From contig JYFJ02003274.1 in NCBI GenBank assembly GCA_000934665.2, forward strand, positions 1 through 44,115: DNA of 44,115 nt, read 5' to 3'. Origin of the DNA: Catajapyx aquilonaris (lineage: Eukaryota). Positions 9,145 to 44,115 of the stretch are shown in pieces (within the stretch, counting starts at the first letter, position 1; each line of letters starts with the position of its first letter). A program made the position numbers and the translations under genes. Below the pieces are notes generated by a model that worked only from the letters and a program-made list of their open reading frames with translations, ran no database searches and was not told the DNA's origin.

Positions 9145-9262
9145 GCCAAGGGCCATGCCACGTTGAAAGCACCGGTTCTCGTCCGATCCCCGAAGTCAAG
9201 CAATGTAGGTCCCGGGTAATACTTGGATGGGTGACCGCCTTGGAATGACGGGTGCACTTGGC
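9145..9262 (+). rRNA. Solitary 5S rRNA gene variant or pseudogene
   Basis: The 118 nt read GCCAAGGGCCATGCCACGTTGAAAGCACCGGTTCTCGTCCGATCCCCGAAGTCAAGC...TACTTGGATGGGTGACCGCCTTGGAA...CTTGGC, colinear with invertebrate 5S rRNA. Box A (AGTCAAGC) and box C (TGGATGGGTGACCG) are recognisable, helix I (GCCAAG/CTTGGC) pairs, and TTTT follows at 9275-9278. Confidence 0.85.
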
Positions 9263-19700: not shown

Positions 19701-22700
19701 CAAAAATCCCAAATCCCAGACCAAGGCTAGTTCCCCATTCTGACGACATCAGGTCTCAGGAGGATATACAAGCAGCCCACTAATTTATGTAAATTGGAGC
19801 CAGGTTTCCAACTTACAAGAGGCATTCATAAAGTTCTGAGCCCAACCATGACAAATGCATTGCACGTGACGCCGCACCTGATTTTTTCCTGCTTCGTATC
19901 TTTCTCTGATCTGAATGATACGACATGCTGCGGTTATTGCAAGAGTTGCACTGCATGGTGTACCATCCTCTACCAGTAAGGACGTGGCACCATACTTATG
20001 GAAAATGGCTTTCGGCTGAATTCCCCCAATTTTTTAATATTGTATCTTTGACCCGAAGTAGCGAGTGACCTGGGGTCAACATGTGGGGTTTTTCAGAACC
20101 AGCTAATCACGCCCGTTCCATTGGTACCACATTTGGTGAACCTTATGAGGGACCGGTAGGCTGCCCTTTGACGCGATGTAGCGGGTGACCTGATGATTTT
20201 CAGGTCTTGGCGCAATGTTAAGAATTGATTATTACCATCTTATTTTCTACAGCATATAAAAAAATTTGAGAATTTAGCCGAAAGCCATGTTCCATAAGGA
20301 TGGTTTGCACACCTTCAGGGTTGGGCTTAGAACTTTATGAATGCCCCTCATCCGTAAGTGGATGAATCATTCCTGAACAGTTTGTATAAGTGAAGTTTTA
20401 TGTAACTTGGAGTTGTGTTTTATGAAATACTTCACGTGAAATTCTGAAACCACAGCACTTGTGCTGGATGCCCGGCCCTGGGTGGTAGGACCTGGCAAAA
20501 GTTGTGTTGGTGTATCTGTGGTTGTAGGATGCCCCATCTTGGGCACTGCAGTCCAAAGAACGGTATTGTGGCTTTGCCAATCTGTATATTCTCAATTGGC
20601 TCTGGGACTGGCAACCTGGGACCCCGAGCCTGCAACAAATGTTGTAATTTTGGGATGTTTCTACTTTATTAGTTTGGTAAATTTCGCAATTTTGTGTGTG
20701 AGTCCGGCTCTACATAAGTCAAAGACTATCTGTACTCTTACTTCATGCGACATTCTGAAACTAAAATACTGCTGGTCCCCCTGTCCTGGCAACATGGCCT
20801 CCAATTAATTAGATACACATCAGCAGAACCACAATAACTTACCTTGGTCTACAGCACATCTGAAGCAAAAAAAAAAAAAAAACGTTGGGGGGAGGATTTA
20901 AATTTTAACATGACCATTACATGTCATTACTCTACCACCTAGATTCGGCTGGAGCAAGAGAGAAAAGAGCTGAAGAAGCAGAAAGAAAAGGAAAAGCGTG
21001 CCCGACTGAAGCAAGAAGGAAAGCTACTCACTCCAAAGCAGAAGGCTGACAGGGCCAGGGCACAGGCCACATTGGAAGCACTGCAAGCCCAGGGTATAAT
21101 CGTTCCAGGGCTAAGGCAGGAGAAGCCCAAGCCTGGCACAGGTGCAAGGCCAAACAGGAGCAAGCGTAAGACGGAGGGAGGGAAGCAAGAGGACCAAAAG
21201 GGTGAGGAGAAGGAAGGTGGGGAGGATGGCAACAAAGTGGAGTTGGAGATTGTGGACAAGGAGCAAAGTCCTGCTGAGAAGGAAAGTGTGGAGGAGGAAG
21301 ACGACGTAAAGGACAGTTGGGATCAGAGTAGTGGGGAAGAGGATGTCAAAGACACATGGGATCAAGATTCGTCAGAAGAAGGTGTGGCAGTAACCTTACT
21401 CCGTATTGTATTGGCGGACAGAGAATGTGGGGAATTTTGAAAGCCAGGGTTATATCTCTGAAAATCCCATTCATAACAAAAGTATATTATGTGCCAAACC
21501 AGGTTTTCTTGTAAAGACCTACAAGAAGGCCTTTTTAACTCAGCTGCTGCAGTTATCTGCGAATCAGCATTCCTCTGTTGTTAATGGTTGCAACATTGAA
21601 TTAGGCCTAAGCCCATTGCTAACTGTATATCTCTTGCCGCAATACATTGCCAATAATTTTATCCCTACCCCTGATTTGGCTCAGACAGAGATATTATTAA
21701 TACTGGCATTTTAAAAATCCTTGCATTCTTTGTTAGCATTACACTATGAATTTGACGTAAGTGGCGTGATAGGTACAGACTTTCTCTCAGGTCGAGGTTC
21801 CTTGAGATAGTCGAAGGCAAAGTTACCCTCATTGAATTTGTTGACATGGGCCCCTTGAGAGAGATAATTGCGTTAATTAATTTCACATTAGGATGTCTCA
21901 AGTAACTTAAATTCAATAGGAAGTGTGCACCTTTCATCCCACCCAGTCTACTTTGCATGTCACAATTAAGCTCATATTTGTATTGTTGGCATTGTGACAC
22001 TCCTGAGTCAAGTATGCACAGATGTTATCTTTAAAGATTATCCTGCATTTTCATTAAGAAGATACTGTTTCAGAACAAGCTGAAGAGGCTCCAGCTGTGG
22101 CATCTAAGCCGAGTGCTGTTCCAACACCCAAGTCAGATAAGAAGCCTGAGAATGGCGAAGAGGTTAGTGATGAGGCCACCAGTGAGAGTGAAGAGAGTAG
22201 TGAGAGTGAAGAAGAGGACAGGAGGACAGATGCTGAGAAGAAACGAGCAAAGGCCGTGGAAAGGATTCGGAAGAGGAGGGAGGATGCAGAGAACAATCGG
22301 AACCCAGATGTTCTTAGGGCAGCTGTCATCTGTGTCCTAGGACATGTCGACACAGGCAAGACCAAGATTCTGGACAAGCTGAGGAGAACTCATGTACAGG
22401 ATGGGGAGGCTGGTGGGATTACGCAGCAGATTGGTGCCACTAATGTACCAATAGAAGCCATCAACGAACAGAGCAAGATGGTCAAAGAGGTTTGTTTGTC
22501 AACAAAAGCTGCGAGATCATAATCGTGCCCGTATACATTTTTGACCAAATTTACAGATTCACTGATTTGATGATAATTCAGCTTCAAAGCCTTTCTTCGT
22601 TCAAAAGAGATGAAAGTGCATTTTGCATTTTCCAGATGCTGCCATTTTATCACGATTCAAGCTGGCTGCTATTAAGTTAAAGTATGGGCTTTGCATTGTT

Positions 22701-25700
22701 AGCCCTGTGTTGACTGAATGTAACGTCAATGCTAATGGAATGTGACATCTGTTAAATTTCAAATAGATTAGAAAATTAGCTTTCTGGGTCAAATTTTGGA
22801 CTGCTTCTGTGTTGGAATGGTTTCTCTGTCTCACTTGTTACTGAATCCCCTTCCATTTTAAGAGGCCACATGAAGCTGCCTACTTGTAAGGCAGCATCTC
22901 TTGAGACGCATTTGAAAGAAAACATTAGGGGCAATTGGGGGCATTTGAGCTGTCATTTTTAACTAGCTCTCACCATGAAAATTTGTCCTGTCCTACTTTA
23001 ACTATCCCTGTCAAATTTGCAAAACATTTTATCTCATCATGACGTCTATTTTACTACCAAACATGTCAAGGAGTGTGTGCAGTTCAAAATATTGCAGAAA
23101 ATTCAGGGTTCTGATTGGAATTAGAAAGCGAAAATGCAGATTACTGCACAATCTTAGTCAGATCTAGCTAACGTCCTGAGTCTTGATCATGGTACATTTT
23201 CATTATATTGTTATAATTTAGGTTTTGGAGTTGGCAGGTTGTGCTCATTTAAAATTCTTGGCCTTTTTATTTATGTTTTAAAAAGTTACATGATTCTGAT
23301 GTATATCTTGTAGTTCCAGGAAAGTGATCTGAAGCTGCCCGGTCTTCTCATTATTGACACCCCAGGGCATGAGTCCTTCAGCAATCTCCGTTCTCGAGGT
23401 TCATCCTTGTGTGATATGGCTGTACTGGTTGTGGATATGATGCATGGACTGGAGCCACAGACTATCGAGTCCATAAACTTGCTGAAGGCCAAGAAAACAC
23501 CTTTCATTGTCGCACTCAACAAGATTGACAGGTGAGAGAGTAAGAAATCCTATATCGTCACAAGTTATTTAGAGATGGAATTGTGAGGACGATGGGACCA
23601 GTTTTAAGAGTTTTACCAGTTTTACCAGTCCAAATTTCCAGTTTTACCAGTTTTAAGAAGATGGGACCAGGCAACTCTAGTTTTACCATCTGCAGCACAC
23701 ATTTGGTCTTGAGGCATTAGCATTAGTTTGGTTGTTATTGAAGCAATTGTCCTGGGGAGCAAGTACTCAGACTTTCCCAATTAAGAGGTTAACCACTCTA
23801 TCTTCAGGACAATTACTTAAATTACTCAGGATTATGTGTGATCACTAATGCAAGGGCCTATGAAGGCCTGCTGTTGATTACCCAAGATCGGGTTTACCTG
23901 ATTATGCGAATGGTTAACCTCTGGCTCCCAGAATATATTCCATGCTTCTAGCAAGAGTACTGAACTTTAAGTATTGTGATCATAGATGCTTTTTGTGGGA
24001 TATTCAAGTGCAGGGAATCTCATTTTTCTCCGAAATAAATTATACCCATTGCAGTAACTCTTACTGACCAAAATAATGACCATCAATGGACCTAAGATTT
24101 ATCCCTTCTATCCTGTGTCCATGTCCGGTAATTCTGGTAATTTGTAGCATGAGGTATCATCACTCATGATACATTACTTTTTGAAGGCTGTATGACTGGA
24201 AGTCAAACAACAAGAAGGATATCCGTGATCTCATGAAAAGCCAGAGCCCTAACACCATGATGGAATTTGAACAACGCACAAAGGAAGTGATTGTCCAATT
24301 TGCACAAGAGAGCTTGAATGCTGCTTTGTTTTATGAGAACCCTGACCAACGTTCATACGTGTCAATGGTGCCCACCAGTGCAATTAGTGGAGATGGCATG
24401 GGTAATCTGATGGCACTGCTGGTGAACCTCTGCCAGGGGATGCTGGCCAAGCGCCTCTCATACACTGAGGAACTACAAGCCACTGTCCTGGAAGTGAAGG
24501 CTCTCCCTGGCCTGGGACACACTGTGGATGTCATCCTGGTGAATGGACGGCTAAGAGAAGGAGATACCATCGTGTTGGCTGGCACTGACGGACCAGTAGT
24601 AACCCAAATTCGATCTCTCCTGATGCCCCAGCCTATGAAGGAGTTGAGGGTTAAGAGTGCATATATAGAGCACAAGGAGGTGCAGGCAGCTCAAGGGGCC
24701 AAAATTGCTGCCAGGGATCTGGAGAAGACCATTGCAGGGCTTAATATTCTCGTGGCACATCACCCAGACGAAGTGGACATTTGCAAGGAAGAGGTAGCCA
24801 AGGAGCTCAAGTCTGCCCTCGGCGCAATCAAGTTGCAGGAAAGGGGAGTCTACGTGCAAGCATCCACTCTAGGCTCTCTGGAGGCCCTACTCGAGTTCCT
24901 GAGGACATCTAAAATACCGGTAAGGAAGGCACTATCCCATGCTTTTTAAATCACGTGTCAGTTAATACAGGCTAGATTAATTTGATTTCCTGGCAATGTT
25001 ATGCTTTGGTTTTGGTGTTGATAAAGTGTTCCTTTGGGTTTGACTTTTTTTGCCTCTTGTCTTCATCCTTTGCTTTGGAGACAAATGATGTGAGTCATAT
25101 TGTGCCAAAAGTTCTCCCACTGTTCACTTGATGGTGATGTAGATACACATGGTTGACTTGGCTGCATCTCATGTTCCTCCCTTATCTCTTTTTACACATT
25201 TCGACACTTTGGCATCCATCAGTGACAGACCTAAGCCTGTTGACAAGTAACTGTATAAAACAACTAAATTTATGCCAAGCTAAATTTGTCAAATTGGGTG
25301 GATGACTACACTGAAGACTCATGTATCAATTGCCCCTGTTGAAATCATGGATATGTTGTGAGTTCAAGAGATACATTTGCCTTTGTAACATGTTCATCTT
25401 TTCTGTCTTAACACAATTTAATTTCAATGTGGGTGAAACTTCAAGTTGTTTTGTTGCACCAATTTGGACAGGTCAGTTGGAAGGATTGCCATATGTGTAA
25501 GAAGTGAATATTAATAGTGCCGTATCTGTTCCGTATGGTTGTGAAACATGCATTTAGCAAAAGCGTGACATGCAAATCCTCAAACTCTTTTTCAATCACT
25601 TGACAGATTTGACATTTTAGCCACATATCAACCTAGAACCATATAGAAAAGTTGTCATGGGCTTTCTGGAGCATATAATATGTATATGCACTTCCTGGTG

Positions 25701-28700
25701 GTGGCTTGAAATTGAGTTGTTTTCAGTTTTATGTCATAAACCCTTGCATAAACCTACTTCACGTCATAGCGTATGGTAACGTGTCATGTGCGTGGCTTAA
25801 TGTATTGGCATTTCAATACTTGCCCTGAACATTTCCAATGTAAGCAGTAGCATTGGTGATGCTTCTCTATTGTGTATGGCTTCAGATTAATCTACATCCT
25901 TTGCCTCAGTTGAAATATATTCTGTTAAAAACTTGCATTAGAGCTGATCCCACTTGTGTGTAAAAATCCTCTGGGATTGTATGCTTTTGATTGTACGTAA
26001 GAGGAGTGAGTGGAAGATGACCCCTGCGCTGCAGAGTCTGAGGTTGACACGCATTTCAGGCCACATTCTTGCTTCTGCCAGGCCTTATGGGCGACTTTTT
26101 TTTGTAGAGGTTCTGGTGTTGTTGATAATCTCGCTTTGACACTTAACTGCCTATTCAGCCTGGCTGCTGCTTACATACAGGCCAATGTTATGTCAAGGCT
26201 CCCAGAGCCCTGCAGATGTTTGCCGAACAGTTAAAAGTCTGACGATTTACCATGTGCATAAGTCAGGTTGTGTTCTACTTTTAAGTTGTTATTGAATGTA
26301 CTTAGAGTGGGATTGTAGATGGGAAAGAATCACATCAGCTGTGAAGTACAGCATATTACCTGGACTTAATTTCTGCCACACATCCTAACGATGTTTCCTA
26401 GGGAGAAATTATGCTGGGAATTTGATCTTCATAATAGGTAAATGTATTACTGTAGGGTTCCATTATTCAGGAGTTACTGACCACCCTCCACTGAATTGTG
26501 CTGATGGAACTTCTCAAATTCCCATGTCCAATGGAACCAAACAATGCAAACTATAATTAGATGCCAACTACACTCCAGTAAGCAAAATCAATTTCATTTA
26601 CTTTGCCAAGGACATTTCGTAGGATAGTTCATTGTCCTGTGAATATCTCTTTATGATGACACTGTACATAATTTGACATCACACAGAATACCTTGGAAGA
26701 AGCCTGGCATTGGTACTTTAAATTACGTTTAGGTAAAGTGGGAAGCTCCATTGTTTTGGCAAGGTTGAAGCTTGTTTTAAACAAAAATGTGCATATGCTG
26801 TGCAAATGAATGGGAATGGATACAAGTACATACCGGCATGCCACAGCATTACAATCCCATTCATAACCTTCGCTTATTCTCTTGGCCCGCTCCTTGCGAT
26901 TATAAACCCACCTGCTCCGCTCTATTCATAATTCATGTCATTTCTATTCGCCAATCCTGCTCATGTACTCATAGCTAAGAATATTGGTTTATTTTCCATT
27001 TGTTATGTAGTCTTTCAGAGACCATGGTGTGGTATGGGCCATATTAACACTGAAGAGTGCATTGACACACCTACTTGCAGCCATGAAAGGAAAAAGTTTT
27101 GCTACAAACTTACAGATTTCTTTAATCTTGTATTTTTATAACTTCTTTGATGGTAGATGTGATTTACGTTATGGTCTGAGCATGAAACTCTGCCACGGTG
27201 GGAAATGGGACTAGTTAAAAAAAAGTTTGCATGCAGCAGGCATTTCTAGTAAAAACCATGGCCTAAAAAGAGTATAGTGACCAGTCATAGAAGGATGCAG
27301 CCGAAATTTTGATTCATAAATAGGCTCCATAGTACGCATTCTGCTGAACAGGAAAAAGCGAAATTACCTGACCGGAATAGTATGACGAATTGGGAGAAAT
27401 TAGAAGAGAAAGTGAGCATGGGAATTTCTTTTGTGGGAAAATTTTCCTACAGCAATGAAATTCCATGATCCAATCATTTTCTTGGGTTAAAATCAAATGG
27501 GCTCCTAATTTTTTTTTTTTTTTTGAGTGTCCGGTTCAAACATGGGGGCTAGAAGAAGAAGAAAAAAACCCTTCTTGGAAGTGGTTGTCGGCGGGGGCCC
27601 CGCGCATAAAAATGAGTTTGCGGGCCGCGGGTTGCCGACCCCTGGATTGGAGTAAACAGGAAATCAGCAGCTGTGATGGCCACCACCCTGCAGGGCTCGA
27701 GTTTCGCCCCTCAACTTCTTGCAGAGGAAGTCGCGAAAGAAAACCCAAGGGGTCGCATCTGCCCCATTACCTGGCTCCCTTTGAAGAAACCCAAAGTTTA
27801 AAAAAAAGGGGGTCATATGTTTGCAGTGGTGGCTCGAACTATTGACCTCAGGCCCCGTTTCCGGCGGCATGACATCACTGACCAATGTGTGGGTCAGCAA
27901 ACAAGCACGTTTTTGGTGTTTAAAAAAAACACACAAATAAAAAAGGGAGGAGCCTATTGCTCGTGCGGAACGATAAGGCGACATCGTAAAAATTGATTGT
28001 GGACCTTGTGCTTTGTCCCGACCTAGAGGAAAAATAACGGATGAGTGACAAATGGTGGACATCCCTTGTCCTGCTGCTGCATCCATCCCAACATCCCCCC
28101 TTTGACCAATAACTCCCGACCACAACCCGTAACCTTGGGGGCCTTGTCCACATGGAAGTCGGGCCATTTAGCTCTAATCCTGTGATGACGAACATCCTTC
28201 TTAACTGCACAGGATGTGGCTCGTTGAAAAAGGGGTGGTAGAGGGGGGGGGGGTGCAGGGATGGTGCAAAAGTGGGGAGGTGAACTCCATGAGGTGCATT
28301 TGGGAAAAGGGATTTGAAATCGGGAAGGAAGCTGGATCATATCCGACACTATTTTCAAATATAATTGGGCCCTCCTCTATATAATCTGCAGATTAATGTC
28401 AGTGGACTATTTTAAGTAATGGCATATTTGCGGACTGAGTTACATAACACAGTAGCACATGGCGACATGGATGACCTGCCAGCATTTTTCGGGCCCAGTA
28501 ATAAAATGATGGCCTAATCCAACAGCCAGCCAGCCCCCGGAGAGACAGGACCCTCAATTATGTCATTGAAGGGCTGAACGGATACGTAACTTGGAGGCTG
28601 TTGACCACCGCCGGAGTGTCGGAGGAAAAAATATATAGTACTTGTTGCATTGCGCGATTGCAACAAAATGTCGATAAGACATCGCTTGCCCCTCAATGCT

Positions 28701-31700
28701 TTCACCTTGAGGAGTTGAATTTGTGACCCTTTCTATAGAAGACTGCTTATTTACAAACCGAGCTGGGGAAAATTACTGTAGCCGGTGACCCCGAAAGGTT
28801 ACTCCACACAACTGCACCATTCATCAGTTTTAATGCTGGCTGAGGCGATGCGAAATGTATGCGTGCGTGAGTGTGTGACTTGCTTGCTGCGTACACACTA
28901 TAAGGTCGCGCGTGCGGCCTGATGTGGGTGTGTGTGTTTTTCTCGAGATGCGCAGTAAGATGAATCAAGTGCGACTAAGTGCGGGGGCACTTCCGGCCTG
29001 GCCCCCGGGGCGATACGCACCTGACCACAGTGACGTCAGCTTGTGAGGCAATAAAATAGCCGTTTTACACACCACCGAGTTAACCAGAGCACTATTTGAT
29101 AGCGGACATGGCTGGGCATATAGTAGTAGGAAATTTTCTGACGTGGGCGATTATGTCCAGCTATCGGCCACGGAGCTGTGTAAATGACCCTCAGAATTTG
29201 ACAGCCGGATGCGGGTACCGCTGTCAGGCTGTGTTCTCCCCATGTGCCTGACAGGCTGTCCCAGAATGTGATGGAACGGAAGGAAGGACCTAAAATTGCT
29301 CCTAGTCTCTCCCTGTGAATAGATCCCACCCCTGCCGCAGCCAGGCAGGATGTCATTTGGCTCCTGCTTCTGAGGGTTATCAATCTTGTCACCGTGAATC
29401 TCTGCAGCATAAATTTCCACAAGTTGTGGTTATTGCCGGAAGGATCCGTCTTGCACGTATGCTCCTCAGACACGCACCACTGGTACTTTCGGATGTGGAG
29501 GGGGACGGTTTTCTCCAGAGGAAGACTTTTTTTTTTCGGTGGTTTCGAGGGAAAATTAACGGTGTTGACTATGTCCCCTACTAGGCATAAAACACTGGTA
29601 ATGTGGGCAACTCGCTGGAGCTGGATTCCGAACTGCTCTGGAGGCGTTTGCTGATGCTAACTTAAAAGGAAATTTAGTGCGTAGGATGCGAGCTAGTTAG
29701 GCGTGCACAGCGCTGGTGTTGCTACTTTTGGAGTCGTAAGCGTTGGAAGTAATTAGCGGCACGGATTTGTAACAAGAGTAGTGCAACAGGGTGGCACGGT
29801 GAATCAGTGCAAACTGCTGTCATCTAAGGTCAAGGTTTCGGGCTAGATCTCGTCAATTTTTGTCTTCAAACTATTTTTCGGTCCATGTGACTGCATATTC
29901 GGTGGGAACACCCTATAGCCCAAAAGATAAGAAGTAGCACCCCCCCCCCCCCNCCCCCCTGCTCGTAAAACTCAAACTGCTGCGTACCAAACCCCTAGTT
30001 TGCCAATAACCTCCGTCCAAATGGAACCATTTGAAGCAGCTTTTACAGTCCCCTGTAAATATGTCAAGACCTTGCAGCATTATCCTGCGTCGGTATGCAG
30101 CCGGTGTGGCCAGAGAGGTGCACCGGCTGCATACTTTAAGGCGCTGATTGCTTCCGGTAATCATCCTAGAGTAGGAATTGGTCACGCACAGTCCCCTCCT
30201 AAAATTTCTAAGAAGGCAAGCTCCTAAAAGAGGCGTGGATTTACGAGGGTATGTCGCAGCACGGTGGTGTATATAGCTGGCCATGAATGGCGTCCGGAAG
30301 GTGGGCGGGCAGTGGGTGCAGCCCCGTAGGCGAGAAGGGAGTCCGGCCATCGATTGCGGCACCTGCTTGCTGCAAACCCCAAGGCCGAATAAGGGAGGCC
30401 CCTGTTGGTCGAGGAGGGGGGGCTTTGTGAATGAAAACACCCCAAGACCTTATCTGCCATTCACCACAAGTGCCAACTGCCATATTGCAAGCGACACTTT
30501 TGAATGTACCACCCCATCTGGTGCTCGCACAGATTTTTAGAGGTGCTGGCCAGATGGCGTGAGGGCACCTGTCCTATATGTACAGGGTGGGCCAAAAGCA
30601 AAACTGAACCACAAGATGGTAAATCAGAACCTGAGGATGGGGGGTCCTTTCAAAAAGTTTTGAGAAAGCGGGATATATAGCCATGGTTGAAAAAAAATAA
30701 TAGTGGGTGCTCTTTTTTTTTACTGCCCGGAAAATGCTGGGTCAGCCTGCCCTTAGGGGTTATAAAATATATAGGCACCTGAGACCCCCGCCAGTCACTT
30801 CCGGCGAGCTGCATGAATGGTCGTTTCGGATGTGAATGGCCCGTCACGGGGAATTTGGGAGTCAAGTGGTCGAAGGGGCAGTTGTTGCCCCCTCCAGAGC
30901 TGTAATTTGTGCTAGTATCTCAGTGGACCGTGCCTCGTAAATCCTCCCCCCCAAAAAAGAGGGAAGATGTGCCCAGTTTCCCCCCTTTTTCTTCCTTGAA
31001 AGTTGTAGGGTAATTTATTGGCAGATTTAATTTTGTTTGAACTGGATGGTTTACGTCTTTACGACATGAGTTTTCTGTGTGCAATGTAATTAGAACCGAA
31101 TTCGGCATCGTGGGGCAAGCTTCATCCGGTCGACCTGAGCTTCGTGCCGGTGGGATTGCATAGTATGAAACACCATTCATAGTCTCCCCCTCTCACCATT
31201 TCCATCCATCCTCTCTTTCTCTCTCCCCCCTTTTTACGGTTTCCTGGTGGTCAAACGGAAATGGAAATCCTTGATAAAATCCAAGGAAGGAAGAGGCGGT
31301 CATTCCTTCCTGGGAGCCCAGGACGCGGGCAGGCGGGCAGGCAGGCTGGCTGCCTTGTGAATGAGGCTTTGATGTTTCCTGTACGTCCTTTATTCTCTAT
31401 GGTATGGTGCGCCAGGCACTCACCATACTTCCCTTTCCATGCGTGCTTTGCTCAAACTGATGATGGGGGATGGTATGCGACGGGGCTACGGACGGACGCG
31501 GGAAACCCAACGGGATGCACGAGTCTCCTAGCTGGATGCACAGGAGGGTTTAATAAATGGTTTCTTCTTATTTTCAGTATGCAGGGATCAAGATCGGGCC
31601 TGTGGTCAAGAGGGATGTGATGAAAGCGTCTATTATGCTGGAGCACGATAGCCAGTGAGTGTTGCATCGATTGTTGCAATGAAATGGTATTCGTGTATAC

Positions 31701-34700
31701 TAATACTTTGGCTACAGATATGCGGTCATTCTGGCGTTCGATGTGAAGATCGAGAAGGATGCGATGGAGCTGGCTGAATCCATGGGTGTGCGGATCTTCC
31801 AGGCGGATATAATTTACCATCTGTTTGACCGGTTCATGGCCTACAGGGATGAGCTGAAGCAGAAGAGGAGGGACGAGTTCAAGCACATTGCGGTGTTTCC
31901 GTCGAAGCTAAAGATCCTGCCTCAGGTTAGCCATGTTTTAGTGTAAGCTGGATTGTACAGGAATGCGCAAAAAAATGCAACACACTTGCTCTTGTTTACA
32001 GTTCATATTCAACAGCCGTGATCCGATAGTGATTGGCGTGGTGGTGGAGTCTGGTGTCCTGAAGCAGGGGACCCCCATGTGCGTGCCCAGCAAAGAGGTA
32101 AAGCTGCTGAGTGGAATGCTTGATTGGATAGGAAGTGGGTGTGGGAGGAGAACAAGGGGGGGAATAGCGTGGGAGGAGGGGGGGGGGGGGGGTCTGCCTC
32201 CCACACACTTCCTGTTTCTCCCTCGGGATCGATGGGACATGGGGAATGGAGCAAGCGCAGTGTACACATTCGACGCCCCCACTGATATGATTTTGGCCCT
32301 ATGGACCTTGCCCTTGCTGCAGAGGACATACCCCCCCCCTTCCCCTGCAATATTTGGCAATCTGCAGGAAAGAGAGGTCACCTCCCCCCCTTCTCCCATA
32401 GAATCAATTGATTGCATCCGTGCCTAATGGTGTCACGGGTAGTGAATTAGCCTGATGAGAAGTTGGAATGGAAGTAGAGGCGCTGGAAATAGTGGAGTTG
32501 GGAAGTTTTTGGGCGAGGTTCCAAGGCCCGCTGGCGGCCCCCATCACTCATTGGTGGCGCTGTGGATGGTTGGGGTAAAGGGAGGACGCATCCATCTTCT
32601 CCCGGAACTCGTCCGCAGCCATTTTAGACCCGCACCTTTTCGGCGGAAACATCCGGCCCAACAACACTTCAAAAGACACACACCTGGTGGCGGACTTCTC
32701 CAGGACTCCAGGGAAGGGCGGCACATCCCCAACATCTTCATCCTTGGGGAATTGGAAATGAATGGGGAGAGACACCCCCTCAAGTCTCATTCATTGGTTT
32801 TAGACAATGGTCGGGATGGGGGCGAGAGAGGGGCGTGGGTGGGGGTTTTTGCCAAGAGAATCTTCGTCTTCCATGTGAGCCAGCTAGTATTTGGCAGGGG
32901 CGTAGGAATGGGGGAGAAAAGGGGTGTGCTGAGCAGACCAGGGGATGGGGAGTGCCCCCCTATCCCACGGACAAGCATTGCATCTCTGCATGCCATTATT
33001 GATATAGGCCCTTGCATGCTCTTCCTTCCACGATGAATAAGTCGAGAGAGGGATATCTTGAAAGGTGGCATCAGAGCAGCGCACCGTGGGCGGAAAAGTC
33101 CTCAGGAAACGCCCTCCAACGGCACCACAGCCCATTTGACGGGCGAACCACTACTGTAACGGTCTGTCAGGCTCAGGGGGTGCCATCTGCAGCACCGTTT
33201 TTCTAGAACCACCGGATTCACATTACACATACATACCGATCCATCGAGAAGTCACTTGGAAGGAAAATTTATTACAGTAACTGTGATCATGAAATAGTAT
33301 TTGGAACTATATGCTCATCGTGTATTACTGGAGTACCCTTTTTTTTTTGTATACCGAGGGAGAATGGGCCTGTAATTATAGTTGAAGACACTGGGCTCTA
33401 GGGAACCTCGCCACGCCGCTTGCCCTTTTTTATTCTGGGATGCCCTGTACCGTGAAGACGTGCGAAGATGGAGGATCATAGTGCACCCCGGCCGCCACTC
33501 CCCGTCTATGCCACTGGGGCACCCTGAGAAAGTCCCCATGGAGCTCGCTTGCGGAAGTGACGTCCATGCATTTCCTGCAAGGCGGCCTCCTCACAAAAGA
33601 AGAAAAAAAAAATAAGGATAATCATTAAAAAAAGAAGCGAAGATGCAGGGATCGTACGGGAAACCTTATATCACGGGTTTTGCTTAGAGGTTGGCTCTAC
33701 AGACCGCATTCTTTGGCATAGGTTAGGATAGGAGTTGGGCGGTGACACGACCCGCATATTTGCCCCTAGGATTATCTATGCCCTACTGCACTGGATACTA
33801 GTGCGAATTGCGCCGGGAGAGGACCCCCCTGCACTTAATTTTGGGTGTCTGGCCTGCGGATGAGACGTTTCCGATTTGGATGTGGAGAGGGGGGGGGGGG
33901 AGAACATCCTGTACAAGTGTAGGAGAAAGTTATTGAGGAGCGAGGGGAAGTGGGGGGAGATGGGAGGGAGGGAGTCGAACGGAAGTGGGTGACGCTTTTC
34001 TTGGTTCTAGTTGGCAGACGAAGCTCAACGGGCTTACTGTGGGAACATGGATCTCCCATCCTCATCAGAAAATGGGAGAGAGGAAGGAGAGGGAGGGAAG
34101 GGACCTTTACTGACATTGGGATGTCTTTTCCTCCCCCCCTTTTTGCGTCCCTCCCCCAACTCCGGATTCTAAGGTGCCCTTTTGCAAGGACCCATTTGGA
34201 TGTTGAGGCTCACTTTTGATTGTCATGAAGAGTGTTGGCGGTTGACCTCTGGATGTGGAGCGAATAAGTAAGGAGGCCCTTGCCGGGATGCAATTAGCAA
34301 AGTCGGGAGGCTGGAAAGCAAACTTCCTCTACCGGTTACTTATAATGCATATGTTGGCATCCGCTCCCGAATCGGTGCGCTGACCCTATGCCAGCAGTAG
34401 GATTTTTTTCTCTCTCTCTCTCTCTCTCACCCTATACGTCTCTCTCGCCCTCTGTGGCGCCCACTTCCTCCACTTGGTCGGGAGGTCACTGTATTGTCAA
34501 GAACATGGGTAGACGCGTTGACAGTTCGGCGGTTGATCGACGAAAGGTTTTTGTCAAATACGTGCTTCGTCTTTTTTTGTGTGCCCTGGTAGCTCGGTTT
34601 ACAAATTGTCCTAATTATTTGAAGTTTAGTTCATTCTTGCAGTTTGCGAGCATGAATCAATGCTAATTGACTGACCCAAAATTCTGGACACATAGGTAAT

Positions 34701-37700
34701 AATATTTGTTGGTTGCCAGCAGGATACCAGTTTTCAACCAACAATATAATATTATTACCCATGTGTCCAGACTTTTGGGTCACCCTGTAGATGATCTGCA
34801 TGTTCTGTTGCCCAACTGGTTTTAAAATAGTGTTACCAGAAACAATGCTGTGGCGCGTCTCTCTCGAGATAAGATCTATGCAGTTTAATATATAAAAAAT
34901 TATGTAAAGGAAATACTACAGATACAATCATGTATACTGTTTTATAGCGTAAGAAGAGTGAAAAGTCACTCGTGATAATAATGCAGGTGAATGCGTGTTT
35001 TTTGTTGCGGATGTTGCTTATGTGCCTGTTAACGTCTCCGTGCTGAATTTGCAAAAACGTATTAGAAGCCGAGATACGGGAAGTTTCGTAAAAATAATAT
35101 TAGCCAACCCTTGTAGCTTATTAAATGCTGCAACCTTCGTAGTCACAGTAATAGCGAAATATTGAATGCAAAAAATATATATCTACAGTACTGTATACAG
35201 CCTGTTGATTTTTCAGGAAATTAACTCGATTGAATGTCACATTAAAGAAAATGACATTGGGCAGAATTTTCGTTTCACTGCTAGTTACTGCTTACTTAGC
35301 ACTAACACTGGTACTGCTATGTTAGCAATATAACTAGCAGTGGGACGAAAATTCCACCTATTGGATTTGAATTGCATTGAATTGTGCAAGTGTGTGCTTG
35401 ATAGTCTCATCACTATTGTCCAGTACGTTTTGAACTACAATTTTTGTGTAAATTGGAATCATTAAGTAAATATGACCGTTTCTTCACTATTGCACATCTC
35501 TACCTCCTCATCCCACCCCCCTAAAAATAACGTCCGTCGAGCCCCCCTCAGAACAATTGAGGCATGTAGAAACTGCAAGTTACACTTTGCTTCTCATCTG
35601 TACATCCGATACCTTTGGGAGGAAATCCGAGTTTTTCCCCGGTGAGAAAGTTACGTGGACCGTCAAATCTCATGAGGTGGGGGAGGAAGAAGGAGTTTTT
35701 TTTCATATTTTTTTTTATATGGTGGGTTCCAGGTCAGAGGAAGGGGTGGCCTTTTCTTATAGGGGGGGAAAGGGAGGGAACAATAATGCTAAAGCTTAAG
35801 GGAATTCTGGCAGGGTGATTTTTAATTAGACCTGCCTTATTGTGCAGGGCAGGTGAACTATGGGTAGGCCGGCTTGCAGGAGGAGGCATGGGGAGGGGGG
35901 TAGCCCTTTTGTGCACAGGAAGAGAAGCCCAAGGAGCCGGATGTGGATCCTCAGAGCGTGACGTTTCAGGGATTGCTTTTCCTGGCCTTAATTGCCCTTC
36001 GAGAGAAAAAGACGACTGGGCTACCTGTGTCCACTTGTCTGTCCTTGGTGACACCTGGGCGACTATTAATCCGGGCCGACATCTGCCCGAGAGCTTTTCC
36101 TACTTCCGGCTTATTGGGCCAAGGGTCACGTCCTGTTATTGGCCTGATATGTGCACGTGACCTGGGGCAGGGTTGCCACAACTATTGGTGACGTAGCCTT
36201 GGCTGTCAGTGTGGCTTGAGGGGGAGTCCCACTTTCATTTGTGGCCTTATTTCCGCCGCCTACGTAATGACAACCCTGAGGTGGAGAGAGGGGGGAGGGG
36301 GGGGTAGCGTTGCTGCAAGTGACCTTTTGAATTCCATTCAAGGCTCTCCACAACTCTGTTTTATGAATGGACGTGGCGGACAGTTGTAAAACCAGTCGCC
36401 GTAACCATCGGAGAGAGGGGGATGGGGGAGGAGAGGGTTTCATGTTCATTCAGGGTCCCAAAAGTGTACGCTCTGTGCACATGTCGCATGTGTGTGTGTG
36501 TGTTTCGATCGCACGTTACAGGGGTCCCATGTAATAGTATGGTTGGAGAGACCGGTTGCTCAAGCTGATATTGAGGGCAGGGCAAATATGGCCGCGGCCA
36601 CACTTCCTGCCTGCCATTCATGGGGAGAGAGAGGGGGGTCCGCCTTTGGAATCGATTCCATTCATTGATAAACCTCCCACGCTTGCGACACGGCGCGTGC
36701 GTGACACCCNCCCCCCCCCCCCCCCTCTCAAAAATGATGAATGGGTAAAGCTACTGCACAAGGCCAGGTTGCTGGAGTCAACAATTTTGCAAGCACATGG
36801 GTGGGCCCCCGTTATTTTAAGGCGTCATAATTTCATAGGGGGGGTGGATATTACATAATTTAAGTCTTGGAGTCTGAATTGGAGGGCTTGTATTCAGCCT
36901 CCTTCTCCTCTTGTGATGGTTGCCGCCATGTCGAGTGGTTATGGATGTGCGGAAGCCCTGTCGACGAAAAGGGAGCCGCCGCATTTTGTTTTTCTGGCCC
37001 ACCCCTCGACATTTTCAACAGTGGCATTATTTCTCGATGCTTTAAGCGCATCCTGTACGTCACCGTTTTTTTTTTTTTTTTAATTTTTAAAAAATAGTAT
37101 AATAATCATTTTAAAAAACGACAGGAAAAATGGGGGTTCGTGTAATGTGTGCGCCGGATATGGAGAAACCATTTTTCTGACCCTGACCCCATCCATCCCT
37201 GCAGAGTCATGTCGAAGGAGAAATTAAGAAACACTATGCTGTACACACACATATTGCGGACGTAGGCAAAGCCGCAATTACGCCGGTTTATCAATACAAA
37301 CCTGCGAAACGGGGAGCAATGATTCATATTTCCGGTGCTTGCAAAGTGTGTGCGGATATATGGCGAATGTCTGCTTGTTTTTTGTTTTCCTACATGTTAT
37401 TTTATCGCATCGTAATTACATGTTGCACAGCCAGGCAGTATAACTGGTTCATCGACAAATTGTGTACAAATTAGGCATCTTGACTGTTTACTGCGTATAA
37501 TGGCATTGTAAACTATTTGTCGCGAGTATGATGTTTGTCAGACTTGATTGTATAGCTATCTCTCGCACGATGGCAGGAGTGTGCTGAGAGAGTATGCGCC
37601 ATCTATACGTGAAAAATAGTTCCATGTGGTAAATCTCATTAAATTGCTTAATTATAGGTTTTGCCAAATTTGGGTTCGCTAGTATTTTTCTAGTCCAGTT

Positions 37701-39769
37701 CAGGGCATGAAATGTGATGGCCTGGATCATTATCTCACATGTGCAGTGAAGGTGAATGTGTTGGGTGTTGCGCAGCTCCGGTGTTTCTGCCCCCTACCGA
37801 AGGAAGTCTCGCCCAAATTGATTTCCTTCCTTTTCCTTCGACACCCTTCCGTCCGGTGTGCCAAGCAGATTCCCACCACCACTGGGTGTTACAAAAACTT
37901 GATTATCCTCGTAATGTGGATTTCACCCCGACCGCATTGTGGACATAGCGTGGGTGGGCCCTCCCCAAATCTGGGTGTAAAATGCCTGGGATGCCTAATC
38001 CGGGCAGGCAAGAATAGATGGCCAGGTGTTCCAGGACACTTTGACAAATGACTGGAAGGGAGGTATAGGCCCTCCTCTTTCTCCATTGAAAGGGACGGGT
38101 TTCCGGTTGGATCTCCATTCTTGCCTGGCGCTCCTTCCAAGATGGCCGCTTCCGCCCGCTTCCATATTTGACACGTTTTTCTCCACCTTTTTCCTGAGGG
38201 GCCTCCAGCATTCATTCCTCATATATTAACCTTGGCTCTTTTCATTGTATCGTTGGTGCTGGCTATGATCCAGCGCCGCACTATTAATAGCTCACCCTTC
38301 AGGCGGCGAGACGAGCCACCTTCTGGCTATTTTTTTTTTCTTCTATGGCAATGCGTGTGTATGTGTGTGCCATGTAATGATCTCAGCCGTGGCTGGCAGC
38401 CAATGTCTCACAAACACCGGTAATTGAACTGCTCAGAATGGGGTTACACATAGGTGTCAGTAGGGCTTGCATCAAAGCGCCCGGATTTTTTTTTCCGCTC
38501 AAAGTCGTCCGACGAAATTTTCGTCCAAATGTTTGTCCAGGCAGCAATCAACATGAAATATTAAATCCTCCATGGTTACCTTCCGCAGTTGTACCTGATT
38601 TTTTTTTTTAGATATATATTTTATAAAAAAGGTACAGTGTACGAAATATCTTGGGCGAAAATTCACCAATAGGATGAAATGACTTCTGACGACAAATTTT
38701 TGGATGTGAAATGTTATGTGCCATTTTTTTTTATCGTTTCAGTTTTTGGAGATAGGAACGGTGTCCAGCCTGGAGGTGAACCACAAGAATGTCGAGATCG
38801 CCAGGAAGGGACAGGAAGTGTGCGTCAAGATAGATCCGGTGTCAGGGGAGGCGCCCAAGATGTATGGAAGGCACTTTGACGAGAACGACCTGCTTGTCAG
38901 CAAGGTAAAAGAGGTGGCTGGAGGGGGGGAGGAAATTTTTGCGCAAAAATTTTTGTGTGAGCCGGAAGTTTGGAAGAGCTATATATGGAAGGAGGCTTCC
39001 GGTCCTCTGTTAAAAGGGAGTGCACAAACACACACAATGAAAGGGTGCCATCTGTTTCCGGTCCCAGGTAGCTTGTCCCGAAAGTCATCACTTTTGAGAG
39101 AGGCCCGGAAGTGGGCTGGCTGACTGGGCTTGTTATTGCCGACGGAATCGAAGCTCAGCCAGATTTGAAACTGATTGAGGTCTTCCAGAAGCCTTCCCAG
39201 TCACACGTCTAATTTATTTTTAAAAAGTGTAGATTTAGAAACGAGCCTTGCGATATTTTTAAATAACTAAACATTGATCATCACTCATCAGCGACCACAA
39301 TTGTATACAAGTGACATACAATGCTTGCAAAAGTAGGTGTGAAAAAGTGTGTTCTATTGTCAACAAAACGTTTTGGCCTAACGCTACATTGTTAACAGCA
39401 AAACATAATTAGAGCATCACTGATGAGTCTCCCATGGGGCATCACTTTTTAATGCACTTGTGATGCTTTATTGTTGCTTTAAAAAATCACATGATCATTA
39501 GAAGACCATTAAAAATTAGGCTCAATAGTAATGATTTTTAATGTTTTGCTGTTTATAGGGTATTAGATTTCCATTGATTTCACCTTGGACGTGTGCTGAT
39601 CTCGCAGGATACAGATTATTGTTATTGTTATGACATGCCCATGGTATGTTTCTCGTTACAGATAAGCCGCGAATCAATTGACGCCTGCAAGGAGTACTTC
39701 CGGGACGACCTGCAGAAGACGGATTGGCAGCTGATGGTGGAGCTGAAGAAGTTGTTTCAGATCCTGTAA
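14489..39769 (+). CDS. eIF5B: Eukaryotic translation initiation factor 5B (IF2 homologue GTPase), 14 coding exons, ~1194 aa
   Basis: Exons: 14489-14535, 16785-16959, 17638-18234, 18514-18616, 18675-18865, 20943-21381, 22059-22489, 23314-23531, 24187-24919, 31578-31654, 31718-31925, 32002-32097, 38743-38904, 39662-39769 (3585 nt, GT-AG, phases consistent). The protein has a K/E/D-rich N-terminus, G1 [22 protein letters not shown]3 DTPGHESF, G4 [32 protein letters not shown] and the C-terminal [17 protein letters not shown]. Boundaries of the low-complexity N-terminal exons are less certain. Confidence 0.96.
16190..16281 (+). repeat. Possible retroposon 3' tail with (AATA)n in eIF5B intron 1
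   Basis: A small hairpin ACCCATAAGGGT is followed by CACGGGGTAC and AATAAATAAAATAAATAAAT... It resembles the inverted end at 748-815. Confidence 0.35.
23598..23690. repeat. Short degenerate tandem repeat (CCAGTTTTA)n in eIF5B intron 8
   Basis: Several adjacent CCAGTTTTA/AGTTTTA units plus a duplicated GATGGGACCAG. Confidence 0.7.
27590..27644. mobile_element. Solo hAT-like MITE terminus
   Basis: GCGGGCCGCGGGTTGCCGACCCCTG is the reverse complement of CAGGGGTCGGCAAC..., a typical hAT terminal/subterminal pattern. I did not find the partner end. Confidence 0.4.
30280..30845. promoter_or_regulatory. Candidate ETS + Capicua enhancer module in eIF5B intron 9
   Basis: TGAATGAA at 30428-30435, with TGAATGG variants at ~30285, ~30457 (rc), ~30814 and ~30833. 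CCGGAAG lies at 30294-30300 and CACTTCCGG at 30796-30804. Confidence 0.5.
34672..34789. mobile_element. Short Tc1/mariner-like hairpin MITE remnant
   Basis: TGACCCAAAATTCTGGACACATAGGTAATAATATT..TGTTGGTTG pairs with CAACCAACA..AATATTATTACCCATGTGTCCAGACTTTTGGGTCA. The right end is CACCCTG|TA, the same terminal motif as the 3204-3743 element. Confidence 0.7.
35260..35358. repeat. Short inverted-repeat element, related to a copy at ~15198-15251
   Basis: GAATTTTCGTTTCACTGCTAGTTA pairs with TAACTAGCAGTGGGACGAAAATTC. The internal CTAACACTGGTACTGCTA.GTTAGCA also occurs in intron 1. Confidence 0.65.
36101..36746. promoter_or_regulatory. Dense Capicua-site cluster with ETS sites in eIF5B intron 12 (candidate ERK-responsive enhancer)
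   Basis: TCCATTCA 36333-36340, TGAATGGA 36364-36371, TTCATTCA 36445-36452, and TCCATTCA 36657-36664 overlapping TTCATTGA. Variants lie at ~36613 and ~36738. ETS cores are TACTTCCGG 36101-36109 and CACTTCCTG 36601-36609. Confidence 0.6.
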
Positions 39770-39838
39770 GGTCAGGAGCTGGCCGTTTTATCCAATCAAG
39801 AATTTGATGTGAGGCCATTTACTACCTGTGAACGTTAA

Positions 39839-39844
39839 AATAAA
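39839..39844 (+). terminator. Candidate eIF5B polyadenylation signal
   Basis: AATAAA 70 nt after the eIF5B stop codon. Confidence 0.45.
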
Positions 39845-42800
39845 TTGAAACAACAACAAAAAAAAGAGTGACTGAGCCCATCCAAGCCAGGTCATTACAA
39901 GGTGAAACCCCTTCAGCAATTTCTTCCAGAAAGGTCGGTAAAGGACCGAAGGAGGATGCGAACCAGATCAGTCCACTTTTTTTTCCCCTCTCTACTTCTT
40001 CTTGAATGCTGCCCACCCTATCCTCCCACTCTCATTGCGACGTAGGTGAAGAGGATGCTCTTTCAGTTTTTTTTTCCATATATACATTTTTTTTTCCAAC
40101 CTCCTTCAGGCTATACGTGCCCCTATGTGAGCCTTTCCATTCATGTCCGCCCACGTGTATACCTGTGCTCATGCATTCATATCAAGCAGCCGTGAAGATG
40201 GCTGGGAGGGCAGGGGAGAGGGGGGCATATGTATACGAGGAAGTGAATGAATCTTGCGACATCTCGGTATAATTCAAGTTGTGGAGAAGGTCGCACGAAC
40301 GGTATCGGGACCAGTGGGTCACTCTGAAGGCGCCATCGTCCGTCTACTCAACATATCAGCATATATTTTGAGTACAAATTGGAGCAGGCCGGAACACTAT
40401 TTAAATGGCAAATTTAATTGCATTGGTGCATAAATTGGGTCTACCGGTGGTTTTGTGAATGAGTATGTGAGCGTGTGCGTCCTGCTAGTTGCGGTCATCG
40501 GTAGGGGGGGAAGTCAGGGAGAGGGGGGGAGAAAAATCCAGGTCACAAGGAAGCGGTGAATAGCGGAATTTTTGCCCTTCAGAGGTTGATGTCGATTGCG
40601 GGCCATTTCTTTCTAGGTTTTTGCGGTGCTCCCTTTGCTGTTGCTTTTGCAGCTTGCGCAATTGCCTGTAGAGTAAAATGAAGCCCGCCTCTCTTTTTTT
40701 GTGCAAATTATGTTCCGCTTTCCCGCCCCCGCAATTGCGTTTTTTTCGCTAAAACTCACGTGACCCGGTCATTTGGTGTGAATGGAACTATCTGGAAAAA
40801 CGGACCGCCCTATCAAGCACTTGAACTTTGACCTCAAGGTGCTAATGATCTGGTTGGTGATTGGTGGCGAGTCTTCCTGCTCATCTTATCACAAAAGTGC
40901 TTTTTTCCGGGGCAAGAGTCGAGCACTGCTAATCGTAGCTGCTAATCTTATTGGGTTGATGTGTCGATATATCCGCACAGGATGGTGCAACTGGCCAGGT
41001 TCAGAAGAGGTGGTTTCTGAAGTTTCTTGTACTGACGTGAGCAATGCACCACCCTGTTGTCGGTTTGTGTTGGGCGATAATTGCGACAGATAGAATTTAT
41101 CACTGCAGAAATGTCATTGCCGCCACTTTCCTCATGGCTTTGTTATCACACCCATAACACCTGTAAAGATTTGCAGGAGAAAGTTGGTTTGCGGAGGAGG
41201 AAAAAAATAATGGTAGGCATCAGTCAACATACGATGATAACATGGACAGGAAGATTGTTATCAGAAATCACAGGAAGGTGCACAGCCCAAGTCCATAGTC
41301 CAACAGGAAATCATGGGCAAAGAATTGCTTGCACCAGCCATCTAATGTCGCCAACTTGAGACCACAATTTGCATACATTTTATTGTGAGAAATTGGCAGG
41401 TGTTGCAATGTAACTTCCATTGATCTCATATCGTGTGAGATTTGTAAGTGATGTTACACACACACGTGTCTGTGTCATTGCGTCATATCCGTTTTATGGC
41501 TTCCTCTGGGAGAACCCCGGTCGCTAGAGAGCTACTGAAGGATATACAGTATATACCTAGCATTACATTCATAATCCTTGTGAATATGCACGGGGCACAG
41601 ACCTATGAGAAAACTGGGTGAGAATAGTTTTAGCAGGAAATTGAAATGAGAGAACAAAAAAAATTCTCCCTCAGCCATTATTTGCGTACAGAGGATGCAA
41701 GGTCACAAGCTGTATCGCTTCGTGCTGCACTTGAATTCATTCATGTATTTCCGTTTATTTTCGCAACCAAATTGCGCACGGTATTCTTGCAAATTAAGTA
41801 AGATCACACAGAATTGGCTATAGGTGTGTAAGGACAAAGGTACGCCTAGCCAATTTTATGTAGAATTGACTTTGTACATATGGTGCCAACTGGTGGTGGC
41901 ATGCACTACGTTCAAGTGCGGAGCGAGCTGGGTAGTGTTGCCAAATTTTGGTTGGTTCACTACAACTTTTTTTTATGAAGTGGATACAAAGTTGCCCTCT
42001 CAGCATGTTGCATCCTCAAATGAGATACAAAGTTGCTTGGTCGTTTCAGAAATACCCTTAATTTTTTTTTCGGGAATTCTGGTTGACGACTTGGACCATT
42101 CGCTTTATGACGTCGCTCTGCTGAAGGTTTTATTGCAGTGCTCGATTTTAACGACTTCTGTCCCCACAAAGTTCCAGCTCCAAGTGAAAGAACACTCGCT
42201 TTTTTTCCTGTCTTTTTACACTGTCAATGGCAGGACGCTCCTAACATAAGTGCATAACCACGACTTTTCTATGCTCGAAAAGAAACATTTAAAAAAAATA
42301 TGTTTTATAGCATACTTTAAGTCAGGCTAATACCGTCAGTACAAGGCGAAATCCGCGTCGCCATTTGCGTTGAGTGGCCCTTTTTTGGCGGGACTATGTG
42401 TGTATATCTCCTGGTCCTTGTAGTCTCAAGAAATTCAAGATGGGCGATGAAACATATGCGCGCGTAAAACCTTCTCCGCTGGATTTTTAACTTGATTTGT
42501 GTGCGTGTGCGTAAATTTCGTTTTTTGTTGTTGTTGTTGTTGTTCTCTTCCGGTTTTGCCGTTTTTACGAAGCGTGAAAGCGTGTCAAATCCGGACGTCA
42601 AAGAAGTTTGGAACCAAACAGCTATTAATCTATTTTTGGGATCTGGAGTTATAACCCGCGTCTCCATCGTCGAGGCGGCCTTTTTTTTTTTCTTCTTCTA
42701 AATATCTATGCTTCGGCTTGTGTATAGTCGAAAATGTTTCTAGGTTTTGTACTGGCATGGCCTGGCGACGTTTGTCATTAGCAGGGTGACACACCGTGGT

Positions 42801-43634
42801 CATCGCGTGCTGGGCGGGGACCTCAACAAAAATTATTACACGGAATGTTGCGGCCTGTTCCAGGAAGAGCTGCATTGGCCTGTTTCTCAATATGCTTCGG
42901 AGAAAACTGGGGGAAACATTTTATTGAGCCTTTTTTGGTCTGGCAAGTTGCAATTCAAGATGGTTCAATGGCAACTTGCGCAGAAGGGTTGAAAAACAGG
43001 AATGCGCAAAAGCTATGCGCAGTCGTCGATATGAAAATTGGTGCCAATAGTGAACTAACTGCAATTTTTTTAATTTTAAAAAGTAACGACTCATTAAAGT
43101 ACATGTTATTTATTTATTTATTTATTTAGATTAAAAATAGCCATGTACTTGCTCCTTACAGTTTGTTTGTGGGTGAGGGATTGAATAAGCGTGGGGAGGT
43201 GCGTCCAGTTGGCAAACGAAAACACAACAGCAGTAACACTTGACCTTGAACAGAGAAATGGCTGATTGGGCACCACATTGCGAAAAAATCTTAGCCGTGA
43301 CACAAATTCTAGCCAGACCACACTCACATTTTGTTGCAAGTTTGAAATTTTGTTGCCCCCCGTAAAATTTCAAAATCATAACCATAGGCTACCAACAAGT
43401 GAAAGGCATCTCCGAAAAGTTAAGCGCTAGGCAATGGGTTAAAAATGTAAAACTTATCGCACTTCCTGTGGCTGGAAAAAAAAAAAGCGTGTAGCAATCT
43501 AATCGCAAAAATTATAAAAAGTCACCACGTAAACACCCCTCCACGTTTCCATTCAAGGAGCTTATATAGTTGAATTGCCTGTTACTTCATTGGGACAGCA
43601 AGTTTTCTAACAGAATTGCTCGAAGAAAAAAATC

Positions 43635-44102
43635 AAAAACAGAACTGCTGGATCTGGCACCATGATTTGGTTGACAGTGTTACCAACCCAACCGTACCGT
43701 ACTCAACCAGACTATATTAGTACAGTTGCGTTGGCAACACTGCTAACCAGATCAGGGTGCCAGGCCCAGAAGTTTCGTGTTTTTCGACTGCAATGTTGCC
43801 ACCCCTGCTCCAATACTCCAACTGTTGCCAATCCAACCGTACTTTTATATATATATTTTTATATACACATATATATATATACAGCCAGGTTGTAATGAGA
43901 GCACGGGTTGGTCACATCGCCAACCAAATCAGTGTGCCAAGTCCTGCAGTTTTGTGTTTTCCGAATATATAGTGTTGGCACCCCTGCTCCAATATTCCAA
44001 CTGTTGCCAACCCATGTAATGAGATCACGGTTGGGTTGGTAACACCTGGTTAGACCTGGGCACCTGGCACCCTGATTTGGTTGGTAGTGTTACCAACTCA
44101 AG
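43635..44102. repeat. Composite direct/inverted repeat, probably transposon-derived
   Basis: TGGCACC.TGATTTGGTTG..AGTGTTACCAAC occurs at ~43635 and ~44064, with an inverted copy at ~43729-43769. CACCCCTGCTCCAATA.TCCAACTGTTGCCAA is duplicated at ~43800 and ~43979. Confidence 0.75.
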
Positions 44103-44115
44103 CGTATTCATTACG

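Follow-up and report, generated by a model that had tools for sequence, protein, structure and literature searches.

Why should the introns and the 3' flank of eIF5B, a housekeeping gene, be rich in sequence words of the kind read by Capicua (Cic) and by ETS factors? The question is raised by a contig of Catajapyx aquilonaris (JYFJ02003274.1, GenBank assembly GCA_000934665.2), whose 44,115 nucleotides are here called the window. In an initial annotation, positions 27500-43560 of the window (hereafter the region) were proposed to be a regulatory landscape of the receptor tyrosine kinase (RTK) and ERK response that serves a gene other than eIF5B. The excess of Cic- and ETS-type words in the region was confirmed here as a real and selective statistical feature, and proved stronger than the initial annotation had been able to establish. 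Judged from the sequence, the region possibly holds RTK/ERK-type enhancers, which would be built on clusters of Cic octamers and on ETS cores; we hold this reading tentatively, and a non-functional bias in word usage is nearly as likely. At present the locus presents a statistically sound motif excess and is to be taken as a lead rather than a discovery.

The known reader of the octamer is described in the papers cited here. RTK-responsive genes are kept repressed by CIC at octameric sites of the TGAATGAA type, and CIC reads isolated octamers without helper sites (PMC5344332), and TGAATG(G/A)A octamers are bound by Cic in the enhancers of RTK targets (PMC4684324, PMC5344332). In Cic DamID (DNA adenine methyltransferase identification) the octamer was found in 692 of 2,279 sites, and an electrophoretic mobility shift assay was reported at pnt (PMC4684324).

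In the region, strict octamers (TGAATG[A/G]A) were found at 30428, 36333, 36364, 36445, 36657, 40136, 40244, 40779, 41736 and 43548, and outside it at 16009 and 24540 only; each of these positions agreed exactly with the initial annotation. One of the ten lies in intron A of eIF5B, four in intron B (all within 36333-36664) and five in the 3' flank. The expected number was 1.98 from dinucleotide shuffles and 1.81 from 1-kb block shuffles, and none of the 400 shuffles of either kind reached ten. An earlier figure of about one expected site held under uniform base composition only and not under the dinucleotide shuffle. When Markov models of orders 1-3 were trained on the region, the observed count was 5.2-7.2 times the expectation. 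The first 27.5 kb contained 2 octamers against 4.36 from shuffles. Among the 16,384 8-mer patterns of the same form, 28 occurred at least ten times in the region, most of them of low complexity (homopolymer or dinucleotide repeats); for patterns of similar expectation the number was 6 of 1,870.

The ETS-type cores gave a similar result. All 14 cores listed previously (near 28988, 29437, 30150, 30294, 30796, 33551, 33979, 36101, 36601, 38961, 38995, 39104, 40238 and 43460) were recovered with an offset of 1-2 bases at most. Nine additional cores fit the same patterns (27725, 32130, 32207, 34322, 34463, 37801, 38813, 39696 and 42547), and two of them, 38813 and 39696, are within coding exons. 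The cores were distributed fairly evenly over the region. CCGGAAG was observed 11 times against 1.66 expected from dinucleotide shuffles and 1.76 from 1-kb block shuffles, and again none of 400 shuffles of either kind reached the observed count; the comparison with dinucleotide-shuffled sequence that had been proposed with the initial annotation was thus passed by both motifs. Under Markov orders 1-3 the count was 3.4-7.4 times the expectation, and in the first 27.5 kb CCGGAAG was absent (0 against 1.28). In 2-kb block shuffles, MGGAAGT (M, A or C) reached 18 in the region against 3.4, and CCGGAAGT reached 6 against 0.45. Among the 28 GGAAGT sites, the flanking bases tend to be those that ETS factors prefer: position -1 is A or C in 18 of them, and position +1 is G in 14.

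Since the region had been chosen after the sites were seen, shuffled windows were scanned for their own best 16,061-base span. Even so, none of 500 block shuffles reached 10 octamers, 11 CCGGAAG or 19 [AC]GGAAGT. A Markov model of order 4 absorbed much of the motif signal, which is expected because such a model contains the motif's own 5-mers. Selectivity was examined with a panel of 40 consensus patterns, using 300 runs of 2-kb block shuffles. Eight patterns were never matched by a shuffle, and these comprised six of the seven Cic/ETS patterns and two of the 33 others, GAGA and MEF2. GAGAGAG occurred 19 times in the region against 1.3, partly owing to a single simple repeat at about 34.0-34.5 kb, and the MEF2-like pattern 6 times against 1.3. 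In the first 27.5 kb no Cic/ETS pattern reached the 0/300 level; MGGAWRY (6/300), MGGAAGT (9/300) and CAGGAAGT (5/300) were mildly raised there. The leading 7-mers of the region, simple repeats set aside, are ETS or Cic words: CACTTCC (observed 14, expected 2.4), CCGGAAG (11, 1.7), ACAGGAA (13, 2.6), ATGAATG (15, 3.3) and CCATTCA (15, 3.8). TATATAG, which recurs near the sites, was discarded as not specific to the region (13 in the region and 19 in the first 27.5 kb).

Where these sites stand in the gene was established as follows. The host gene lies on the plus strand, to the right of exons of an OATP-type transporter, and its sequence firmly identifies it as eIF5B. The exon at 24185-24946 matched solved eIF5B chains with an E value of 2.8e-101 (phmmer), which bears out the earlier gene call, and the Pfam domains GTP_EFTU, domain 2, IF-2 and domain 4 follow in order on consecutive exons. 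Of 4,262 matches below 1e-60, the best 120 contained named proteins from insects and Daphnia exclusively, mostly annotated as eIF5B and 73-80% identical, and no near-identical named protein. The 3' part of the gene model was set by one spliced contig of 3,805 nt from run X5 with GT..AG joints. The kind of run X5 is not on record and is probably RNA; its contigs show neither starts nor strands, a 256-nt contig in intron B was its one informative match within the introns, and its coverage gaps there carry no evidential weight. On the plus strand, an exon ending at 24918 is joined to 31577 across intron A (24919-31576, 6,658 nt). Three small exons carrying IF-2 and GTP_EFTU_D4 follow (31577-31654, 31718-31922 and 31999-32095), separated by introns of 63 and 76 nt. 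The joint 32095/38741 then spans intron B (32096-38740, 6,645 nt) and leads to a domain 4 exon (38741-38902), and intron C (757 nt, between 38902 and 39660) precedes the last coding exon (39660-39769). This exon ends in a TAA stop at 39767-39769, and an AATAAA is found near 39841, so that the sites from 40136 on lie past the first poly(A) signal. The region consists of the two 6.6-kb introns (of intron A, the right part), four small exons and the 3' flank, in agreement with the placement of the sites in eIF5B introns and 3' flank that had been given before.

Within this frame, the 31 TGAATG hexamers in part form three clusters of about 0.5 kb, at 30284-30833 (6), 36335-36738 (6) and 40003-40456 (5). 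At least three clusters of at least five TGAATG within 550 bp arose in 20 of 20,000 uniform placements, a figure that is optimistic because the 550-bp window was set after looking. The strict octamers are grouped as four in 332 bp (36333-36664) and three in 651 bp (40136-40786), and uniform placement of ten sites put four octamers within 350 bp in 172 of 20,000 trials. Three candidate modules can be delimited around the clusters. The first, in intron A (30151-30840), contains six TGAATG, one octamer (30428) and three CCGGAAG (30151, 30294 and 30798). The second, in intron B (36102-36745), contains the octamers at 36333, 36364, 36445 and 36657, with six TGAATG in 404 bp and ETS cores at 36102 and 36602; it also carries GAGA-type runs and is flanked by poly-G, (GT)n and poly-C. 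The third, in the 3' flank (40003-40786), contains the octamers at 40136, 40244 and 40779 and six TGAATG, and a GGAAGT overlaps an octamer at 40238-40251. Farther along the flank (41736-43555), isolated octamers at 41736 and 43548 are accompanied by ETS cores at 42547 and 43461.

If the clusters act as enhancers that respond to RTK-Ras-ERK signalling, Capicua bound to the octamers would impose repression by default; ERK signalling would then remove Capicua, and ETS activators would drive transcription through the GGAA cores. Known Cic enhancers of Drosophila (pnt, stg, CycE and argos, and the hkb probes) use the same octamer in several copies per element, to be compared with the four in 332 bp of the second module. 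They differ from the three candidate clusters described here, two of which consist mostly of TGAATGG hexamers rather than full octamers. True Capicua/ETS enhancers at this locus would make an ERK-response element from outside the model insects readily available.

Several results weigh against the enhancer reading. The full octamer accounts for just 10 of the 31 TGAATG hexamers, and over the whole window its count of 12, with 6.23 expected, is only marginal, 3 of 100 shuffles having at least as many. The TCAATG[A/G]A variants that had been counted as additional sites were located as given at 36661, 38082, 39570 and 41416, with a fifth at 24083, and were not enriched in the region, where four stood against an expectation of 1.81 and 34 of 300 shuffles had at least as many. 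Neither AP-1 (0 against 1.7) nor SRF (3 against 1.9) was enriched there. The proximity of ETS cores to TGAATG or to octamers was no better than chance at 15-200 bp; an ETS core within 25 bp was found for four TGAATG against 2.14, a value reached in 851 of 5,000 placements. A composite ETS+Cic element was rejected accordingly, the adjacent pairs 30284/30294, 36602/36615 and 40238/40244 being within chance, and the sites show homotypic Cic-type clusters in an ETS-rich background, not a composite ETS-Cic element. The initial interpretation was borne out in part: motif enrichment, host gene, intron and flank placement and the Drosophila neighbourhood discussed below support it, and ETS-Cic proximity and the AP-1 and SRF counts do not. 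Words without a known reader were as enriched as the motifs themselves, namely AATAGT(G) (22 against 6.4) and GTATACA (9 against 0.9), and hexamers with z near 5 occurred in the left 27.5 kb too. It follows from these two findings that low-order null models understate the natural over-dispersion of words. The expectations were derived from shuffles and Markov models of the window itself and not from a genome-matched background, and the choice of the two motifs, like that of the window sizes for clusters, was made after the sequence had been viewed. Finally, three CCGGAAG cores of intron C (38962-39111) fall where the summed contig depth is 146 against a baseline of about 33, and may therefore sit in a repeat.

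Many of these points are also what a non-functional word bias would produce, that is, old decayed insertions or neutral DNA with a skewed vocabulary from which motifs were chosen post hoc. We consider this explanation possible as well: besides the enriched words that lack a reader, the high z values of the left part, the chance-level co-localisation and the marginal count over the whole window, it draws on the composition of the locus. At a poly-T run of 16 nt inside intron A (27510-27525, plus strand), GC rises from about 0.39 to 0.50 and the observed/expected ratio (o/e) of CpG from 0.33 to 0.67. The poly-T stands exactly at the jump, which is where a retroposed insert would be expected to end. 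Up to about 27.5 kb intron A is AT-rich and CpG-poor, and its right part has a GC of 0.50. The selectivity for ETS and Cic words among the 40 patterns and the clustering of the TGAATG hexamers speak against a mere bias.

The CpG values also bear on both explanations. CpG o/e was low in the 5' coding blocks (0.34) and on the left side of intron A (0.33), and higher on the right side of that intron (0.67), in intron B (0.66), in the 3' exons (0.78) and in the flank (0.80). Since the shift extends to the 3' exons, it belongs to the domain and not just to young inserts, which tells against the word-bias explanation. The gene as a whole spans two CpG domains, with ratios of 0.2-0.36 over most of 16000-27500, in exons as well as introns, and of 0.55-0.9 from about 27.5 kb. 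From these ratios we infer that germ-line methylation has affected the 5' two-thirds of eIF5B but not its 3' third. The shift fits 5'-biased gene-body methylation and an unmethylated regulatory domain alike; it counts in favour of the enhancer reading, and that the former could alone account for it counts against.

Repeats were considered as the material of a word bias. The contexts of the Cic and ETS sites all differ from one another, and a sensitive self-BLAST detected no internal repeats, diverged ones included, except a 40-nt piece at 35.3 kb and repeats resembling miniature inverted-repeat transposable elements (MITEs) at 43.6-44.1 kb. One repeat family behind the sites was ruled out on these two grounds. 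A Pfam search (E <= 0.01) of 150 of the 159 open reading frames (ORFs) of at least 55 aa over 24.9-44.1 kb returned eIF5B exons only, apart from one sub-threshold match of chance level, and seven further ORFs at 43.1-44.1 kb had no Pfam match. A nested coding gene or transposable element was rejected from the lack of a Pfam domain in ORFs of this size, with the reservation that short transposon remnants could escape a scan at the ORF level. Summed DNA contig depth, which comes from a run that is possibly the assembly's own source and does not measure copy number, was about 33 in most bins of the region. It was raised at 34.3-35.6 kb (327 and 2,725), 36.9-38.2 kb (114 and 276) and 38.9-39.5 kb (146). 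The bins of the first and third modules were near baseline (33.7-43.4), and that of the second was about twofold (66.6). The absence of transposon protein domains, the self-BLAST result and the near-baseline depth across most of the region argue against decayed insertions, and the high-copy MITE-like repeats at 34.3-35.6 kb argue for them. The latter are palindromic elements at about 34671-34783 (44-nt arms) and 35255-35363 (33-nt arms), situated in the bins of very high depth (327 and 2,725 against about 33). The hairpin of the former gave matches resembling plant microRNAs in Rfam, at sub-threshold scores only. The two Ns of the window (29953 and 36710) each lie within a long C homopolymer where the DNA contigs of run X1 break, and local lengths are uncertain there because of these breaks.

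The ETS-rich, GC-rich stretches might, instead of being distal enhancers, mark promoters or transcription units in the introns or flank that have escaped annotation, for example alternative starts or non-coding RNAs; we regard this as highly improbable. The excess of CCGGAAGT would fit this explanation, as CCGGAAGT is a common promoter-proximal motif in animals. GC skew is positive up to about 42 kb, beyond the poly(A) signal, and an X5 contig of 256 nt lies in intron B (37711-37966), with zero mismatches and a depth of 2. The contig falls in a bin of raised DNA depth and could be a repeat transcript or an intron remnant; and among the ORFs searched in the region none but those of eIF5B carried a domain, and no Rfam family was found at threshold.

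If the modules are real enhancers, they may serve eIF5B itself, tying the level of a translation factor to ERK through intronic ETS sites and Cic repression. Intronic enhancers act mostly on their host gene, and the sites are inside and just behind eIF5B. Moreover, proliferation genes of fly gut stem cells are under Cic control (PMC4684324). This alternative nevertheless appears unlikely. No strict ETS core or octamer was found between 12638 and 16009, an interval that spans the putative promoter at about 14-15 kb, and the 5' gene body, with its CpG o/e of 0.34, resembles a constitutively methylated housekeeping gene. The sites gather instead at the extreme 3' end of the gene and behind its poly(A) signal.

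Under the enhancer reading, we would guess that a neighbouring gene beyond the right edge of the window is more likely the target than eIF5B itself. The window ends 4.3 kb past eIF5B, and no Sprouty or other Pfam domain was found in the 3'-flank ORFs within it. The initial annotation had named sprouty as the prime candidate on the ground that the gene neighbours eIF5B in Drosophila. This neighbourhood is corroborated by the available text of one report, in which sprouty and eIF5B share one domain rich in H3K27ac (acetylated lysine 27 of histone H3) with GAF, Psq, Pc and CBP peaks in Kc167 cells (PMC6754745). The peaks of that domain are at GAGA motifs, and GAGAGAG is enriched here too; the same text, as far as available, does not place sprouty enhancers in eIF5B introns (PMC6754745). 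CIC targets include Sprouty and Spred (PMC5344332), and SPRY4 was de-repressed in CIC knockouts, with enrichment at its putative sites in chromatin immunoprecipitation followed by quantitative PCR (PMC5485162). The human targets SPRY4, SPRED1, DUSP6 and ETV4 are ERK-feedback genes repressed through TGAATGAA-like sites (PMC5485162), which makes a target of the sprouty type plausible. In contrast to the human sites, which are promoter-proximal, those described here are in eIF5B introns and flank, with no sprouty gene visible in the window. What makes sprouty a reasonable candidate is solely the Drosophila precedent, and that eIF5B is a sprouty bystander in this genome is put forward as a hypothesis.

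The arrangement recalls genomic regulatory blocks, in which likewise a housekeeping gene would hold in its long introns the enhancers of a neighbouring developmental regulator. Such blocks with bystander genes were reportedly described by Kikuta in 2007 and by Engstrom in 2007, and their hallmarks are conserved non-coding elements and conserved microsynteny. In a literature search, no paper paired eIF5B with microsynteny, or microsynteny with sprouty and bystander, and the phrase genomic regulatory block together with sprouty gave an unrelated match only. By analogy, eIF5B and sprouty might form an old arthropod regulatory block, in which Cic/ETS enhancers for the ERK feedback of sprouty, placed in the 3' introns and flank of eIF5B, would have locked the two genes together down to Drosophila; we consider this doubtful. 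Should the clusters serve sprouty, they would explain the lasting adjacency of the two genes and would offer a case in which regulatory constraint on gene order can be tested.

Other features of the window lie mainly to the left of eIF5B. The exons of the OATP-type transporter occupy 10.2-13.2 kb. An intronless ORF of 628 codons on the minus strand (5781-7667) gave a weak, sub-threshold match to ligand-gated ion channels (E 7e-05, with 23 bits where the cut-off is 30.8) and may be a divergent ionotropic receptor. Between this channel-like ORF and the OATP gene stands a solitary, full-length 5S rRNA gene on the plus strand (9145-9263; 83 bits, model positions 1-120 of 120). In the first 27,499 nt, the cAMP response element half-site TGACGT was found 19 times against 6.45 and the full TGACGTCA three times against 0.25, which was not so in the region. 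At the right edge (43640-44111), nested direct and inverted repeats of 80-93% identity are probably copies of one small mobile element.

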